Assembly: GCA_050952625.1 (NCBI GenBank)
Contig: JBMNLH010000001.1
Location: 1,216,001 to 1,280,000, forward strand
From: Bacillota bacterium
GTDB lineage: Bacteria; Bacillota; Ch66; Ch109
Reading direction: 5' to 3'
Length of the DNA: 64,000 bases
The notes under the pieces are model-generated. The model searched no databases and had not been told where the DNA came from. It saw nothing but the letters and a program-made list of their open reading frames with translations. The first letter of the stretch is position 1, and each line of letters opens with the position of its first letter. Positions 1,336 to 64,000 of this stretch are shown piece by piece. The position numbers and the translations under genes are program-made.

Positions 1336-2412
1336 TTATAACTCATTCATTTTTCTGATTATGGCATCAGCCATTTCCGCTGTCCCGACAGCAGTGGGGT
1401 CATTGCGATCTAGTTTAAGATCATAGGTGACATCTTTCCCTTCGGCAATAACCGCCATTACTGCTTGTTCCAGTTTATCAGCTGCCTCGGCTTCGCCCAA
1501 ATGGCGCAACATAAGCATCCCGGACAAAATAACGGCAGTCGGGTTAACCTTGTTGAGGCCTTTATATTTGGGGGCTGAGCCATGGGTGGCTTCAAAGACA
1601 GCAGCCTCGTCACCGATGTTGGCTCCCGGAGCGACACCCAGCCCGCCGACCAACCCGGCACAAAGGTCAGATAAAATATCGCCGTAGAGATTCTCCATAA
1701 CCAGGACATCAAAGGCCTCCGGCCGCTGCACTAATTGCATGCACATGGCATCGACCAGCCATTCTTCGTACTCAATCTGTCCTGCATAGTCTCGGGCTAC
1801 TTCTTGAGCTGCCCGATAGAAAAGACCGTCCGTGAATTTCATAATATTGGCCTTAGCCACCGCGGTCACTTTTTTCCGGCCATTGCGGACTGCATAGTCA
1901 AAAGCGTAGCGAACGATCTTTTTGGATGCTTCCAATGAAATAGGTTTGATGGAGATCGCGGAATCGTTTTTAATTTTGCCATTACTCATGGCCATAATCT
2001 GACGGGCTTCCGCGCTTCCCAGGTCAAATTCAACACCGGCATAAAGATCTTCGCTGTTTTCCCGGACAATAACTAGGTCAATGTCTGAGTAGCGAGACCT
2101 CACTCCAGGGTAGCTTTTACAGGGACGGACACAGGCGTAGAGGTTAAGGGCATGTCGCAAAGCAACATTAACACTACGAAATCCCGTGCCAATCGGGGTG
2201 GTTATGGGTCCCTTTAAGGCGACGCGGTTGCGACGAACACTTTCCAGGACTTGATCAGGCAGGGGGGTGCCGTATTTTTCCATAATATCTACCCCAGCCT
2301 CCTGGATTTCCCAGTCTATATTAACCCCCGTTGCATCAATCACTCTTTTGGCTGCTGCGATTAATTCAGGTCCTGTTCCATCACCAGGAATCAAGGTTAC
2401 TGTGTGTGCCAA
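1336..2412 (-). CDS. icd: NAD-dependent isocitrate dehydrogenase (isocitrate/isopropylmalate dehydrogenase family)
   Basis: [28 protein letters not shown] and FEATHGSAP motifs. Confidence 0.8.
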
Positions 2413-2522
2413 CTAACTTCTCTCCCTTCGCCACATTATTTGTTATAACTACTATTGTCATCATCCTTCGGCTGACAATTATCATAATACCATAAAATTT
2501 GTGAATGGGAGGGAAAAAAATA

Positions 2523-2542
2523 AAAAACCTCCATGCTGGAGG
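2523..2542 (-). terminator. Rho-independent terminator of the tRNA-Gly/tRNA-Arg pair
   Basis: CCTCCA/TGGAGG hairpin followed by a U-run on the minus strand. Confidence 0.6.
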
Positions 2543-2558
2543 CTGTTGTTCGCTCTTA

Positions 2559-2633
2559 TGGTGCGCCCGACAGGAATCGAACCTGTGCTCCTGGCTCCGG
2601 AGGCCAGTGCTCTATCCCCTGAGCTACGGGCGC
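2559..2633 (-). tRNA. tRNA-Arg(CCG)
   Basis: GCGCCCGTAGCTCAG...anticodon loop CTCCGGA...GGTTCGATTCC...CCA. Confidence 0.95.
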
Positions 2634-2634
2634 T

Positions 2635-2708
2635 TGGAGCGGGTGATGGGAATCGAACCCACGCAACTAGCTTGGAAGGCTAGGGCTCTACCATTGAGCT
2701 ACACCCGC
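2635..2708 (-). tRNA. tRNA-Gly(TCC)
   Basis: GCGGGTGTAGCTCAATGG...loop CTTCCAA...GGTTCGATTCC...CCA. Confidence 0.95.
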
Positions 2709-2808
2709 AAACGCAAGTGAATTATAGCATATGAATAATCTAAAGTCAAAGGGTTAGTTTGATTTTTTTGAGTTGGCACGTAGGATGGAGATGCCGGCCG
2801 CAATTGTA

Positions 2809-4285
2809 CTAATGACAGCGGCTACTTGAAACACCCGAGCAATTGAAGCCGCATAAACTTCTCGGCTTAATTCCACGGTAGTGCAGGTAGGAGTCGAAAG
2901 GGAATAGGACTAAGGAAAAGTACGCAAAGACAGCGGAAGACAGGGTTACTCCCAGAACCATGCCTAAATTGCGTCCAGTAGCGACAACTCCGCCAGCGAT
3001 CCCTAGCTTAAATAGAGGAACTGAACCCATGACTGAACTATTATTTGGGGCATTAAACAATGACATTCCTAATCCATAGATACCTAACCCCACAACAACT
3101 TTAGCAATTAAGGCTGACGAGCCTAACAATGATAAATTGATCAGAGCAAAGGTGGTGATAATGAGACCAAGGCAGGTAAGTGTTTGATAACCAATTCGAT
3201 CAGATAACCAGCCGGCAGTAGGTGAGACAACTGCCATAGTCAAAGGAATGGCGGTCATAATCAGACCCATTTGCTGCGGGGTTAACAAAAGGGAACCTGC
3301 CCCAGGTAAAAGGGGATCCAGAAGGAGACAAAGAAAGACACCATATAAGCCAAGACAGAGGCTGAAATACCGCTGGCGAAGGTCCAATTTTGAAATAGAT
3401 TTAAATCTAGCAGGGGCAATTTAACCCTTTTTTCTCGATAGATGAATAAAAAAAGCAAGTTGAGACCCGCAATGCCAGAGATAAGCGTCAGCGGATTTTG
3501 CCAACCCCAGGTCGGGCCCTGCCCTAAACTAAGCAGGAATAAGATAATACCTGAGGCAAATAAGGCAAAGCCAAGCAGATCAAGCTGATGACGTAGTTGA
3601 ATGACTTGAGATATGAGTCTCTGAATCCGGCCGGTAGGACCGGTTTCTTGATCCATTATAAACTGGTTAGTTTGACCAAGTGAATGATTCGGCAGGTAAC
3701 GGTAAGCTAAGTAGAAGCCAATGACCCCCAAAAAAACGTTGAGGTAAAAAATTTTTGACCAATCCCACGTTCCGACAATAAAGCCGCCGAGGATCGGCCC
3801 GGTAAGGGTGCCTAAGGCCACGACTGTCCCGGTGGTCCCTCAGAGCCTGACCACGTTGACTGGGAGGAAAAGAGGCTGTTACAATCCCCATGCCGGTCGA
3901 CATCAACATCGAAGCTCCTATTGCCTGAAAAGCCCGACACAAGGCCAGGAGCCACACATTTCCAGCCTGACTGCAAAGGCCAGAACCAATAGCAAATATC
4001 AGAAAACCGGTGGAATATACCGGCTTGCCCCCAATCAAATCACCGATGCGGCCAAATAAGAGTAGGGTCGCTGTAATGCATAATAAATAGGCAGTAACTA
4101 CCCATTGAGCAGTCTGGGGAAGGATTCCCCATCGTCACAGCAATCGAAGGAGTAGCGATGTTTACCATGCTTCCATCCATACAGGAGATAAAAATACCAA
4201 CGGAAACTACCATTAAAACCATCCATTTGTTGGCGTAGGGTTCAGTTTTTGGTGACTGGCTTAGCCTTGCTGATTCATAATTCAC
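2809..4285 (-). pseudogene. DHA2 (EmrB/QacA-like) MFS transporter split over four frames (real pseudogene or indel errors)
   Basis: Consecutive ORFs 4040-4285, 3667-4038, 3282-3821 and 2809-3387 carry successive MFS segments (DGSMVNIATP, RAFQAIGA, GPILGG..W..IFYLN, GWLSDRIG, APNNSSVMG). Confidence 0.85.
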
Positions 4286-56718: not shown

Positions 56719-58399
<1,681 letters not shown>

Positions 58400-59986
58400 A
58401 GTAACATCCGAAAGGATGCGAAACCAGGTCGGTCGTCAGACTTCGCATAACAACTGTTTAGTTTTGAGGGACCAGGCAACTGGCAACTCAAAGAAAAATA
58501 AAAAACCAAAAGCTTCTAACCAAAGAAGCCGCGGTAAAAAAGACTTCCCATAAATTTAGCCAAACTCAAAAGAGCCAGGCCAAACCAGAGGGAAGCCAAA
58601 CTCGACTAACTAAGAAAAAACCGAAAGCTAGTCGAAACCGAACCCTGAAAACTGCACAGCGAATTATAAAAAAGTTCTGTCAAGCGCAAGCCAAAGGATT
58701 AAACCAAAAAACCTTAAAGTAGACCTTAAAGTAGAAAGACAAAGGTCAAGCTACTAAGGGCGTACGGAGGATGCCTAGGCGCTAAGAGACGAAGAAGGAC
58801 GCGGTAAGCTGCGAAAAGCCTCGGGGAGCCGCAAGCAGGCCTAGATCCGGGGATCTCCGAATGGGGCAACCCAACTGGAGTAATGTCCAGTTACGGCTAA
58901 CTGAATCCATAGGTTAGTCGAGACAACCAGGGGAACTGAAACATCTTAGTACCCTGAGGAAAAGAAAACAACAGTGATTCCCCAAGTAGCGGCGAGCGAA
59001 CCGGGAAGAGCCCAAACCTCAAGAGTGTCAAAGCCTGCCGGCGTTGCTTTTGAGGGGTAGCGGGACCATCCTGGGCAGCGGCAGCAGCCCAAAGGAGTAA
59101 GAAACCATACTTCTAGGTGAAGCGGTCTGGAAAGACCCGCCACAGAGAGCAACAGCCTCGTAACCGAAAGAAGCATGGCTCCTGGATGGGATCCCAAGTA
59201 CTGCGGGACACGTGGAACCCCGTGGGAATCAGGGAGGACCACCTCCTAAGGCTAAATACTCCTTAGCGACCGATAGTGAACCAGTACCGTGAGGGAAAGG
59301 TGAAAAGCACCCCGGGAGGGGAGTGAAAAAGAACCTGAAACCGTATGCCTACAACCAGTCGGAGCTATTTCTTCGGAAAGAGTGACGGCGTACTTTTTGT
59401 AGAACGGACCGGCGAGTTACAGTAACTAGCAAGGTTAAGGAAACGGAGCCGAAGCGAAAGCAAGTCTTAAAAGGGCGAAAGTTAGTTGCTGTAGACCCGA
59501 AACCGGGTGATCTACCCATGGCCAGAGTGAAGCGATGGTAAGACATCGTGGAGGCTCGAACCAACCGTTGTTGAAACAGCGGTGGATGAGCTGTGGGTAG
59601 GGGTGAAATGCCAATCGAACCCGGAGATAGCTGGTTCTCCCCGAAATAGCTTTAGGGCTAGCCTCAAGGGATAATTGATGGGGGTAGAGCACTGAATAGG
59701 CTAGGGGCCTTACCCGGTTACCGAACCTTCTCAAACTCCGAATACCATCAATCGGACCTTGGGAGTCAGACTGCGAATGATAAGATCCGTAGTCGAGAGG
59801 GAAACAGCCCAGACCGTCGATTAAGGTCCCCAAGTGTGGACTAAGTGGAAAAGGATGTGGGGTTGCCCAGACAACCAGGATGTTGGCTTAGAAGCAGCCA
59901 CCATTCAAAGAGTGCGTAATAGCTCACTGGTCAAGTGACCCTGCGCCGAAAATTCCCGGGGCTCAAGTCCACCACCGAAATCACGG

Positions 59987-60460
59987 ATCGTCTAGATGTT
60001 AGATGTTGGATGTTGGATATTAGATAGGGATAACGGAAGACATGAAGCAAGGTTATGAAAGACTTAGGATATACCAAATCTCATACGAAATGGCAGTCTT
60101 GATTCATAGAGAGACGCAAGAATTACCGAAAGAAGAAAGATATGAATTAGGCAGTCAAATGAGAAGAGCGGCTATATCCATACCGTTAAACATAGCGGAA
60201 GGCTATGCAAGAAAGCAGTCTCAAGCAGATTTTGCACACTTTATAGCCATAGCTTTAGGATCTTGCAATGAAACAACCGTATTATTAAACCTGGCTAGAG
60301 ACTTAGGGTATCTGGTGGAAGAGAAGGCAGCAGATTATCTAACCCGGTATCAAGAACTGGGTAAACAGATTAATGTATTTCACCAGAAACTAAAATCATC
60401 AAAGAGCCAAAATCGAAACCCATCTAACGTCTAAAATCTAAGATCTAACATCTAGACGAT
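59987..60460 (+). other. 474-nt protein-coding intervening sequence in 23S helix 45
   Basis: Between ACCGAAATCACGG and GGTAGGGGAGCGTTC; perfect 18-bp terminal IR ATCGTCTAGATGTTAGAT. Confidence 0.92.
60042..60434 (+). CDS. Four-helix-bundle protein (23S rRNA IVP / TIGR02436 family)
   Basis: L.IYQ.S, P.EE.Y.L.SQMRRAA.SIP.NIAEG and F..IA.GS..E signature. Confidence 0.92.
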   Translation: MKQGYERLRIYQISYEMAVLIHRETQELPKEERYELGSQMRRAAISIPLNIAEGYARKQSQADFAHFIAIALGSCNETTVLLNLARDLGYLVEEKAADYLTRYQELGKQINVFHQKLKSSKSQNRNPSNV

Positions 60461-60921
60461 GGTAGGGGAGCGTTCCCACAGCAACGAAGTCATCCTGGAA
60501 GGGATGGTGGAGCAGTGGGAAGAGATAATGCCGGTATGAGTAAGCGAAAAGGCAGGTGAGAATCCTGCCCGCCGAAAGCCTAAGGTTTCCTGGGGAAGGC
60601 TCGTCCGCCCAGGGTAAGTCGGGACCTAAGCTGAGGCCGAAAGGCGTAGGCGATGGACAACCGGTGGAAATTCCGGTACCACCCCAAGCCGCTCGAGCGA
60701 AGGGGGGACGCAGGAGGGTAAGCGAAGCGTACCGTTGGTTGAGTACGCGCAAGCTGGTAGGGGGTAAGACAGGCAAATCCGTCTTACACAAACCCTGAGA
60801 AGTGACGCCGAGGGAAATAAAGTACCGAAGTCGCTGAACCCAAACTGCCAAGAAAAGCCTCTAGCAAGGCAAAAGGGTGCCCGTACCGCAAACCGACACA
60901 GGTAGGCGAGGAGAGAATCCT

Positions 60922-60953
<32 letters not shown>

Positions 60954-61179
60954 CGGCAAAATGACCCCGTAACTTCGGGAGAAGGGGTACCCCGCGTAGC
61001 GTGACTATGTGAACATATAGAAGCGTGAGGGGGTCGCAGTGAAGAGGCCCAGGCGACTGTTTACCAAAAACACAGGTCCCTGCCAAAGCGAAAGCTGAAG
61101 TATAGGGGCTGACGCCTGCCCGGTGCTGGAAGGTTAAGGGGAGAGGTTAGCGCAAGCGAAGCTTTGAACCGAAGCCCCA

Positions 61180-61264
<85 letters not shown>

Positions 61265-61514
61265 TCTGGGCACTGTCTCAACGAGGGGCTCGGTGAAATT
61301 GTACTACCGGTAAAGATGCCGGTTACCTGCGACAGGACAGAAAGACCCCGTGGAGCTTTACTGTAGCCTGATATTGGATTTTGGTAGGCAATGTACAGGA
61401 TAGGTGGGAGGCAGAGAAGCAAGTCCGCCAGGATTTGTGGAGCCAACGGTGGGATACCACTCTTTGTGTACTGAAGTTCTAACTCGGCCCTGTGATCCAG
61501 GGTGAGGACATTGT

Positions 61515-61547
<33 letters not shown>

Positions 61548-61548
61548 C

Positions 61549-61582
<34 letters not shown>

Positions 61583-61703
61583 AATGGTTGGAAATCATTC
61601 GCAGAGTGTAAAGGCAGAAGGGAGCTTGACTGTAAGAGAGACATCTCGAGCAGGGACGAAAGTCGGGCTTAGTGATCCGGTGGTCCCGAGTGGAAGGGCC
61701 ATC

Positions 61704-61740
<37 letters not shown>

Positions 61741-61769
61741 TATCTCGCCCAAGAGTCCATATCGACGGC

Positions 61770-61853
<84 letters not shown>

Positions 61854-61858
61854 TACGT

Positions 61859-61901
<43 letters not shown>

Positions 61902-61926
61902 TCGCAGGCGCAGGAAACTTGAGAGG

Positions 61927-61964
<38 letters not shown>

Positions 61965-62016
61965 GCTGGTGTATCAGTTGTTCCGCCAGGGGCAACGCTG
62001 AGTAGCTATGTTCGGA

Positions 62017-62048
<32 letters not shown>

Positions 62049-62333
62049 ACCGGCCTCAAGATGAGGTTTCCCATGGAGTCAATCCAGTAAGACCCCAGCA
62101 AGACTAGCTGGTAGATAGGCCAGGAGTGTAAGAACAGCAATGTTTTCAGCTGACTGGTACTAATCGGTCGAGGGCTTGACCTAGTCTTCTAAACGAAAGG
62201 CGTTTAGAGTTTAAACTGAGGTTTTGATAGAACATAAAAATTCGCTGTGAAGTTTTGAGGGTTCAAAATTAGGGATAAGACAATGACCTAATAGATGACA
62301 TAATACAGAACCCTAAACTAATTGAATAAAGCT

Positions 62334-62451
62334 TTCTGGTGACGATAGCGGAGAAGAAACACCCGTTCCCATCCCGAACACGGCAGTTAAGCTCTCCAGC
62401 GCCGATGGTACTTGGGTGGTGACGCCCTGGGAGAGTAGGTCGTTGCCAGGA
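62334..62451 (+). rRNA. rrf: 5S rRNA
   Basis: CACCCGTTCCCATCCCGAACACGG..GTTAAG and GAGAGTAGG; terminal stem CTGG/CCAG. Confidence 0.97.
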
Positions 62452-62457
62452 TATTTT

Positions 62458-62491
62458 AAAGCCTCAGGTTTTGCCTGAGGCTTTGGTTTAT
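62458..62491 (+). terminator. rrn terminator and intron target hairpin
   Basis: AAAGCCTCAGG-TTTTG-CCTGAGGCTTT then GGTTTAT. Confidence 0.85.
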
Positions 62492-62687
62492 GTGCGCCAC
62501 GCATGGCGATTAACTAGACGGTGAAAGTCCGTTATGGGGGTATGTAGCGACCAACCATTAGCCTAAGGCAAGGGTGTCCATCGAAAGGTGGAATCTAAAG
62601 GAAGCCAGCGGCAAAATTCCGACCCGAGGAACACGAACAATATTAGGCGCAAAACGTGGGGTAAGACTGCACAACAAGTTGAAGCCC

Positions 62688-62813
62688 AAGCTCATCCAAA
62701 TCCTATCGGAAACAATAAAGGACGGACGAGTCATATCCTTAATCCACAAATTCCTCAAAGCAGGGGTCATGATGAATGGACTATTCGAAGAGAGCCCTGA
62801 GGGTGTCCCGCAG
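62688..62813 (+). pseudogene. Class C intron RT fragment (RT3-4 region), ends at GVPQ
   Basis: KLIQILSETIKDGRVISLIHKFLKAGV...EGVPQ. Confidence 0.85.
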
Positions 62814-62814
62814 G

Positions 62815-63090
62815 AAAGTAAATTGTAATGCAAAGCAAACGCATTAAAAGCAAGGTTTTAGAGCATTTGTTCTAGAATTACTTTGCATAATAATCTCGAT
62901 AAATAGTCGACATTACCCCTTAAAAATGCGGAAAAAGCAGTCCATTTAGTGTAGATAAAAGCGATTTCGGTATATTTTCTCGATTTATTTGATTATCACG
63001 CTACTTGATTATGCAAAGTAAATTTGATCTATACCTACTAAAGACAGGCTTTCCCACTGTTTACTTTGCATAATTACTTTCTTTGCATAA
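62815..63090. mobile_element. 276-bp non-coding element with five TTATGCAAAG-type sites (RIT-like ends, no recombinase gene)
   Basis: Sites at 62826(+), 62881(-), 63009(+), 63064(-) and 63081(-); interrupts the RT at PQ|GG. Confidence 0.7.
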
Positions 63091-63777
63091 GGCGGCCCCG
63101 TTAGTGTACTCTTAAGCAACATATATCTTCACTACGTATTGGACCCATGGTTCGAAAAAGTAGTAAAACCAAGGCTTAAAGGAGAGAGTTACTTAATCCG
63201 TTATATTGATGACTTTGTGGTATGTTTCCAGTACCGAGCAGACGCAATCAAGTTTTGTGAGGCATTGGAGAATAGACTAAGTAAGTTTTCACTGAGCATT
63301 GAAACGAATAAAACAAGGTTTGTCGAGTTCGGCAGGTTCTCATCAAAGCACGCCAAGGAAAAAGGAAAGAAGATGGAGACAATTTACTTCCTTGGCTTTA
63401 CGCACTTTTGTACAAGAAATAGAAAAGGTAATTTCATGGTAGGCAGGAAGACAGAGAAGAGCAGACTTAAGAGAAGCATACAAAAAATCACCGACAAAAT
63501 GAGGGAAATCAGGCACTGGGCAATAAAAGACCAGGCAGATAAAATTAACGAAATGCTCAGAGGACATTACAACTACTATGGAATGGGTGGTAACCTTAAA
63601 TCATTGCTCAGGGTATACTACAGAGTCGAAGATTACTGGCGGAAAATGTTAAGTAGCCGAAGCTGGAAGGGTTATATAACTTGGGACAAATACAAGGAAA
63701 TTAAGAAAACGTTCCCGATATTGCGACCCAAGATAAGAATCCCGTTTGGGAGCATGAAATCTTACGCAATGCTGTGA
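63091..63777 (+). pseudogene. 3' half of a group II intron RT/maturase of a non-C class (RT4-7 plus X, no endonuclease)
   Basis: GGPVSVLLSNIYLHYVLD...RYIDDF...KTRFVEFGRF...FLGFT...LRGHYNYY. Confidence 0.9.
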
Positions 63778-64000
63778 ATCAATTTCTGAAGAGCTAGCTG
63801 CGGGAAATCCGCACGGCTGGTTCTGTGGGGGTATGGGCTACGAATTGCGTAGCCCTTCTACCCGGAGTCGGCTGACCAAATAATGATCAGCCTCCTACCC
63901 GATTTCTTAAAAGCGCAGCAGGATTGAAGAAATACCCCTTAGGGCAATTCAAGACAATAATATCCTGGCCATTTCCGTGAGTAGCCGCGAACTAGAACGC

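Follow-up and report, generated by a model that had tools for sequence, protein, structure and literature searches.

A gene-less miniature of a recombinase-in-trio element between parts of two different group II intron reverse transcriptase genes

We have analysed a 64,000-nucleotide stretch of a Bacillota bacterium genome (assembly GCA_050952625.1, contig JBMNLH010000001.1, positions 1,216,001 to 1,280,000 of the forward strand; hereafter the window, in whose coordinates positions are given), close to the end of which a short non-coding insert at 62814–63090 separates parts of two different group II intron reverse transcriptase (RT) genes. We consider it highly probable that this insert is a gene-less miniature derivative of a recombinase-in-trio (RIT) element, here a relic, and probably formed by recombination of the element between two targets in RT4, the part of the RT that holds the motif PQGG. 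Comparison of sequences shows that elements of the lineage with these ends sit at the two glycine codons of that motif, within the RT genes of group II introns.

The insert measures 277 bases (276 if a common G is assigned to a flank) and holds five copies of a 10-bp site, S (TTATGCAAAG), at 62826 (plus strand, one mismatch), 62881 (minus), 63009 (plus), 63064 (minus) and 63081 (minus). With start-to-start spacings of 55, 128, 55 and 17 bp, the two sites of an inverted pair are 45 bp apart in each case and the right end carries a 17-bp doublet; five of the six sites expected are in register (Table 1). Exact matches to S number four in the 64-kb window, all within the insert, and 10 in the whole 2.9-Mb genome, against 7.8 expected on both strands, with no other cluster. 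No open reading frame (ORF) of 40 amino acids or more lies wholly inside 62814–63090, and only the tails of ORFs begun in the left RT piece enter its first 20 bases. A first-pass annotation, made from the letters alone, had described a non-coding core with five sites, inverted pairs 45 bp apart and a terminal 17-bp doublet, all of which we recover. It had also read GAAAGTAA at the left junction as a mirror of the right-hand spacer; the string is real, but its register is wrong, GAAAG being the remnant of an outer site (which reads CGCAGGAAAG at its expected position) and TAAATTG being, by the 17-bp register, the left-end spacer. The 27-bp doublet on the right is intact and that on the left lacks half of its outer site; the palindrome, which in RITs stands at one end beside terminal repeats of about 28–34 bp at both, is absent. 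Folded as a single strand the miniature gives z = -2.87, a value that merely reflects the inverted sites. An internal 20-mer (62934–62953, 75% like the right junction) was considered as a possible target mimic; it is present in one relative (L149) and not in another (L150).

Relatives were sought in a species-representative collection (genome_contigs) with the terminal doublet pattern, its spacer left free; counts of flanks, trios and miniatures are those of a sample, drawn from 121 loci among the matches listed. The doublet occurs in at least 120 genome stretches, by their record titles from Bacillota, Desulfobacterota, Bacteroidota, Pseudomonadota, Chlamydiota, Verrucomicrobiota, Chloroflexota and others, and once in viral_contigs, there in another sublineage. 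At many loci two inverted doublets lie about 3.44 kb apart. Locus L019, a 3446-bp contig bounded by doublets, carries three overlapping ORFs (94–1374, 1367–2353 and 2340–3350; 426, 328 and 336 amino acids), all of which match Phage_integrase, together with SAM-like domains, in Pfam. Searches by tblastn with the three L019 proteins gave alignments of at least 200 amino acids to all of them at 30 of the 121 loci, and to at least one at 70. Every full-length or miniature copy examined (13 loci) has at each end S at 0, S at +17 and inverted S at +72, and the relatives have terminal inverted repeats of about 27 bp with a palindrome at one end. The right 85 nucleotides of the insert are 77.6% identical to L019 3–86, beside the start of ritA at 94. 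The ends of the insert are accordingly classed, by this architecture, as RIT ends. Relatives with the same ends possess the trio and the window copy has no genes; it is a RIT derivative and not a full member of the family. The first-pass annotation had likened the ends to those of RITs and had proposed comparing them across genomes. The comparison bears it out: copies enclose three tyrosine recombinase genes and are repeatedly flanked by RT halves broken at PQGG.

At three loci (L103 1260–1320, L125 3258–3301 and L128 5438–5464) CTTTGCATAA is simply repeated in tandem every 17 bp, outside any RIT context; these plain arrays may be decayed ends, or another protein may make use of the 10-mer and its spacing.

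The outward flanks of 145 doublet ends were classified, nine of them being too short and 136 scorable. Forty ends run in sense into the 3' half of RT4 (GG..SP.L.N); 37 are followed by a palindrome (GGNGGN, S, S', NCCNCC, S' being the inverted site) and then by antisense ...(Q/R)GG; four are followed by antisense PQGG directly, 21 by the same palindrome with other cores and 34 by other sequences. On translation, 39 of 41 downstream flanks match RVT_1, all from profile position 122, and 27 match GIIM too, while 30 of 35 upstream flanks match RVT_1, 29 of them ending at position 122–123 (the five misses are 52–88 amino acids long). Pfam placed six further ends of the last two classes in RT genes (L041, L055, L087, L070, L073 and L088), and at least 87 of the 136 scorable ends adjoin an RT gene at this one point. 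Among 41 upstream and 39 downstream distinct flanks, only first and second codon positions are fixed at the DNA level (GGN ACN CCN CAR GGN GGN, and GGN GGN ... TCN CCN), the third being free; in all 39 downstream flanks G stands at positions 1, 2 and 4, and in 38 of them at position 5. Since nothing beyond first and second codon positions is fixed, the target is defined by the invariant protein motif.

In the RT sense, a canonical occupied site reads ...PQ, GGNGGN, S, S', NCCNCC, S-N7-S, followed by genes or about 130 bp, then S'-N7-S', GGNGGN and the rest of RT4. Glycine codons are present on both flanks as GGNGG(N), a duplicated core of 5–6 bp, and the upstream side usually adds the 20-bp S/S' palindrome and an inverted core. 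The first five nucleotides are equal on both sides in 10 of the 17 elements with two scorable flanks, non-RT sublineages included. The palindrome lies on the PQGG side for either direction of the rit genes (by eye, at the ritA-proximal end in 10 elements and the ritC-distal end in six), and RT 3' halves adjoin the ritA-proximal end in seven elements and the ritC-distal end in nine, again by eye. An exact insertion between PQ and GG, as proposed in the first-pass annotation, is thus right in that RT genes are broken at these codons, but there is no clean PQ/GG cut, both flanks normally keeping GGNGG(N).

Other sublineages with the same doublet were seen to interrupt IstB_IS21, with flanks that end or start at profile position 104, the Walker A motif (L029 and L081, and L039 on both sides). 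Their further targets are a tyrosine recombinase gene (L056), a non-intron RVT_1 gene (L035), a Transposase_31/YhgA-like transposase gene (L037), an IS66 transposase gene (L107) and genes for a TnpB-like protein (L024) and a HATPase_c_4 protein (L089). Motif homing may be general for this RIT clade.

Miniature copies form a set of their own. Twenty elements of 150–900 bp with both doublets occur among the 121 loci, mostly in RT4; two of them (L033 and L064) are 98.3% identical and lie in different RT genes of one chromosome, and another pair (L114 and L130, 95.3%) lies in opposite orientation relative to the target. A metagenome search with a 26-nucleotide pattern containing one N gave no matches, and a gapped pattern from the window miniature then gave four loci. 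Over 62819–63090, middle part included, the window miniature is 81.5% identical to L149, 79.1% to L150, 67.7% to L040 and 56.8% to L151 (by BLAST, 70.5% over 271 nucleotides for L040). L149 and L040 are simple insertions with canonical junctions: L149 keeps full ends and the palindrome, and in L040 an RT ORF runs into the element on one side and the RT4 3' half follows on the other. Considering that the internal 130 bp or so is homologous in miniatures of other organisms and that L149 and L040 are canonical, the miniature existed before its arrival at this locus, and it belongs to a travelling lineage rather than being the product of an on-the-spot deletion.

Miniature inverted-repeat transposable elements (MITEs) are miniature non-autonomous derivatives of DDE transposons. 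Like them, the window copy has both end modules, no coding capacity and homologous copies elsewhere; an autonomous partner or further copies in the same genome are missing, the 295-bp stretch 62808–63102 being single-copy and neither a recombinase trio nor a second element copy being found in this 95.9%-complete assembly. In 40 related genomes the intron pieces were matched and the miniature was found in none.

The insert lies behind an rRNA operon near the window end (16S, 23S and then 5S rRNA, the last at 62335–62451 by Rfam). Class C group II introns reportedly insert right behind intrinsic terminators, and the first intron has this placement, its GTGCG abutting the terminator of the operon; the same position, by sequence inspection, is taken by a paralog in the same genome (L015) and by a fragment in another genome (G002, L004). 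Domain I was recognised by the Rfam model group-II-D1D4-3 at 62577–62731 (65.2 bits). Compared with the related complete intron at C1:514608–516511 of its own genome, window 62520–62687 is 73% identical in DNA to C1:514635–514802 and window 62687–62812 is 76% identical to C1:515608–515733; about 806 nucleotides of the paralog are absent from the window between the domain I stump and the RT3–RT4 piece, which are fused. The left RT piece ends as GVPQ (GGT GTC CCG CAG), and its 42 residues are 85.7% identical to the RT of the paralog L015 as against 41.5% to the 439-amino-acid RT P0001 (tblastn). The second RT resumes as GGPVS (GGC GGC CCC GTT AGT; the piece opens with GGPVSVLLSNIYL), in frame with a 212-amino-acid ORF at 63139–63777. 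Across all its 228 residues it is 92% identical to P0001; it matches RVT_1 (E 1.6e-12, profile positions 122–204) and gives 19.7 bits with GIIM, under the cut-off of 23. The right intron has its RT/maturase followed by domains V–VI, and its 5' half is absent. The first-pass annotation was correct in assigning GVPQ and GGPVS to two different RTs. By tblastn, a P0001-type RT 5' half is missing from the genome, and so is a second class-C-like RT 3' half. To see whether the first nine nucleotides of the right flank (GGC GGC CCC, giving GGP where P0001-type proteins have GGS) might derive from the class-C-like RT, P0001-type DNA was sought for comparison; nothing close came up, the best match among 200 genomes sampled from the phylum reaching 46% identity. 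The stretch downstream of the rRNA operon is littered with remnants of mobile DNA.

Beside these introns, a ParB_N fragment (E 1.3e-6; window 63914–64000, continuing to L003 3119) starts 11 nucleotides past the 3' end of the second intron and stops after 66 amino acids. The paralogous intron (L015 1608–3511; G000:C1:514608–516511) stands behind a hairpin and T-run and its RT4 target is vacant (CCGCAAGGCGGC); its RT is split by a +1 frameshift in a C-run, three bases beyond the target, which could reflect decay or a fault of the assembly, or conceivably be a scar. In a genome of the same family, L004 (G002:C137) holds at 1422–1584 the first 163 nucleotides of the same intron, at 94% identity and behind a different terminator; this fragment ends at another cut point and is followed by a gene that is MerR-like by sequence reading alone.

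We suggest a mechanism in which the recombinases, bound at the S sites, would release the element as a circle, whose junction would read doublet, GGNGGN, S, S', NCCNCC, doublet. A crossover within GGNGG, in either copy of the core, with the codons of RT4 would then give the asymmetric junctions observed, and, the junction being symmetric, either orientation would be allowed. Since the protein motif is invariant, RT4 codon targets would stay available in any genome with introns. Because they keep the predicted binding sites, miniatures could be mobilised in trans, in the manner of MITEs. At the present locus, recombination at the element between two RT4 targets would have joined a class-C-like intron behind the rRNA terminator to an intron with a 439-amino-acid RT beside the ParB_N fragment, either by recombination of two element copies or by recombination of the right junction of one copy with a second, empty target; by either route the 3' half of the first intron and the 5' half of the second would be deleted, and a further small lesion would then have damaged the left end. 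Recombination that deleted the DNA between two RT4 targets is the most likely course of events at this locus. The window copy appears to be immobile now, its left end being incomplete and the genome lacking a trio. Rearranged copies with outward-pointing RT 3' halves on both sides, a full-length RIT (L057 2616–6063) and a miniature (L150 900–1200), were seen elsewhere, and their arrangement indicates that recombination between copies or targets recurs.

Several observations weigh against this reading. Outside the three RT4 classes lie 55 of the 136 scorable ends (the 34 others and the 21 palindromes with other cores), or 49 after the Pfam placements; these 49 have non-RT or unidentified flanks, and six of them, in three loci, belong to the plain tandem arrays. 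Given these 49 ends, RT homing describes one lineage and not all elements with this doublet. The assignment to RITs rests on architecture, NCBIfam having given for the L019 proteins Xer-type models only, below the cut-off. It is from integrated copies alone that we propose a circle junction, a crossover point and a role for each recombinase. The arms of the palindrome show weak compensation (15 compensated as against 33 uncompensated deviations) and are not used as evidence for a hairpin. Moreover, in the window the right junction is canonical, the doublet being followed by GGCGGC, and the left is not, having lost the GG codons, the palindrome with the inverted core and, from the outer site, its first five bases. 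Derivation of this left joint from a canonical one by deletion between direct repeats was considered and rejected, because it yields the rare direct-PQGG form (four ends) and not the joint of the window. Letter for letter the insert does lie between PQ and GG, but its left boundary results from a secondary lesion.

That lesion invites another explanation, in which the miniature inserted normally in the 439-amino-acid-type RT, an unrelated illegitimate deletion then took away the DNA between a point in the class-C-like RT and its left end, part of which was lost as well, and the endpoint at PQ is a coincidence. The non-canonical left junction, which cuts into the outer site, would be in agreement, as would the internal deletion of about 806 nucleotides that the same intron already has, with short direct repeats at its ends (sequence inspection). 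Nevertheless, a random endpoint would fall within a few bases of the single targeted position in an intron of about 1.9 kb with a chance well under 1 in 100, and there is no microhomology at the joint; we regard the coincidence as unlikely. Less likely still is the origin that the first-pass annotation had drawn, a full-size element in each of two nested introns with a deletion between them that made the gene-less core on the spot. It is true that the flanks are two different RTs whose missing halves are nowhere in the assembly, and that the rearranged copies L057 and L150 have RT 3' halves on both sides. The core is also non-autonomous, as had been claimed, but it was not made here: homologous miniatures of about 280 bp occur elsewhere at 68–82% over the whole length, the internal 130 bp or so is homologous in L149 and L150 at the identities given above and in L040 at about 68–70%, and L149 and L040 are simple canonical insertions. 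Removal of DNA between two RT targets is plausible, if unproven, whereas nothing indicates nesting, the 3' exon of the second intron being the ParB_N fragment and not intron sequence.

An assembly chimera through a common repeat might have brought two RTs together: the assembly has nine contigs, the runs that contain the stretch are metagenomes, RT genes and miniatures are repetitive in such communities, and the cover breaks up before 62611, only short multi-context pieces joining that position to the 5S gene, with loose ends at 62472–62492. Logan contigs of four runs from four studies (bioreactor and digester metagenomes) were compared with the window and bridge both junctions without any difference. 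Single contigs from two independent studies span 62611–64000 (run X3, record 16) and 62641–64000 (run X4, record 24), and two more runs bridge each junction with overlapping contigs (X2, records 6 and 7, 62641–62987 and 62962–63907; X8, records 29 and 30, 62611–62954 and 62931–63150). Since these contigs bridge without difference, both junctions and the joint of domain I with RT3 are real in nature, and, the element being single-copy in the genome, a chimera is hardly credible. The remaining proposal is that the cluster is not mobile DNA and serves a regulator or a replication protein of the host as a set of binding sites (iterons or an operator array); we give it practically no credence. In its favour, L103, L125 and L128 have plain arrays of the same 10-mer with the 17-bp period. 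Against it, trio-bearing elements from many phyla show the exact 0/+17/+72 layout at each of their two ends, this layout is bounded by defined junctions in RT genes, and no further cluster exists in the genome. Recombination of a pre-existing miniature RIT between two RT4 targets is the reading that we prefer.

RIT elements have been catalogued since 2009. In the parts of the published accounts available to us, the architecture is given as three overlapping tyrosine recombinase genes in about 3.5 kb with an inverted repeat of 28–29 bp and a terminal palindrome (Van Houdt 2012, PMC3414803), and a published RIT paper places RITs inside a transposase gene and inside radC of an integrative and conjugative element. 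The same partial sources give as subgroup signatures two CB domains in RitA and an extra C-terminal helix in RitC (Smyshlyaev 2021, PMC8138268), suggest hairpin intermediates (Nielsen 2017, PMC5737581), apparently mark RIT target specificity as not tested in a comparison table (PMC10214605), and describe mobility as undemonstrated with no convincing binding sites found. The relatives of the window copy share with RITs the three adjacent overlapping recombinase genes, the length of about 3.4–3.5 kb, the inverted repeats and the palindrome at one end. The window copy differs in having no genes, and the published passages at hand give no binding-site map, intron RT targets or miniatures. The RIT family is thus already known; full-text literature searches returned no paper that connects RITs with the RT genes of group II introns or describes miniature RITs, an earlier mention in Ricker 2013 or in supplements being possible.

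Several other systems invite comparison. With Tn554 and GInt/SE, according to PMC10214605, RITs share several tyrosine recombinases together, a strong target preference, a circular intermediate proposed or shown and the lack of a classical target duplication; those elements have their own gene sets (TnpABC; ginABCD), cargo and single chromosomal att sites, in contrast to a coding motif of a mobile element and no cargo here. The likeness to MITEs extends to ends kept and coding lost, a length of about 280–295 bp, near-identical copies at different targets in one genome (L033/L064) and an autonomous partner with the same ends. Mobilisation here would, however, proceed by a site-specific crossover of tyrosine recombinases, and in place of a short generic duplication the target is a defined core of 5–6 bp within a protein motif. 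The strategy of inserting in DNA for an invariant protein motif, with the consequence that targets persist across taxa, is also that of homing endonuclease genes, inteins and group I introns aimed at conserved catalytic motifs, but RIT insertion, being without splicing, destroys the host gene, and a recombinase would act in place of an endonuclease and repair.

We lean slightly towards a wider view of RITs of this clade as hyperparasites of mobile elements, in which the 5–6-bp core in the circle junction of each sublineage would match the DNA for an invariant catalytic motif in the enzyme of another element, the palindromic junction would permit either orientation, and miniatures would use the same machinery and, through recombination of occupied with empty targets, fuse, delete and reshuffle retroelements, as at the present locus. 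This view is based on PQGG of intron RTs and Walker A of the IS21 IstB protein; for integrase, IS66 transposase and TnpB-like targets only the gene, and not the motif, is identified. Apart from this view, the locus and its relatives show one class of selfish DNA disabling another in a systematic way, which bears on how group II introns (and, by side observation, IS21 and others) are held in check and fragmented in bacterial genomes and accounts for some 'broken RT' annotations. The locus and its relatives together supply a putative 10-bp binding site in a fixed layout of three per end, a core of 5–6 bp, a natural target in the GG codons of RT4 and natural gene-less substrates, which should make a transposition assay easy to design.

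Table 1. Features of the insert and its surroundings (window coordinates)
Feature	Position	Strand	Basis or remark
Intrinsic terminator of the rRNA operon (hairpin 62456–62486 plus T tail)	62456–62492	+	14-pair stem; insertion context of the first intron
First intron, 5' end (GTGCG) and domain I fragment, class-C-like group II	62493–62687	+	Rfam and paralog DNA match
RT3–RT4 fragment of a class-C-like intron RT, 42 amino acids, ending ...EGVPQ	62688–62813	+	tblastn and paralog DNA match
Miniature non-autonomous RIT-type element, 277 bp, both RIT ends without genes	62814–63090	.	Site layout, same ends around trios, homologous miniatures
GAAAG, remnant of truncated outer left site (expected 62809–62818)	62814–62818	+	17-bp register of relatives; alignment to L149 and L150
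Inner left site TAATGCAAAG, one mismatch	62826–62835	+	
Inverted subterminal site of the left end, its start 55 bp from that of the inner site	62881–62890	-	
Right subterminal site	63009–63018	+	
Right terminal doublet: site, 7-nucleotide spacer TTACTTT, site	63064–63090	-	Equivalent to the ritA-proximal end of full-length elements
GGCGGC core, two glycine codons of RT4, canonical right junction	63091–63096	+	RVT_1 match starts at profile position 122
3' half of a second, different group II intron RT (YIDD type, 439-amino-acid family), 228 amino acids and stop	63091–63777	+	RVT_1 and P0001 match
Second intron, domains V–VI and 3' end	63789–63903	+	Rfam Intron_gpII, 43.9 bits (gathering score 40)

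Finally, two features of the rRNA operon itself were noted. The 23S rRNA gene (58744–62183) is about 500 nucleotides longer than the Rfam model, and an ORF inside it (60042–60434) matches PF05635, the 23S rRNA-intervening sequence protein (E 7e-35). The 16S gene (56719–58393) measures 1675 nucleotides as against 1533 in the model.

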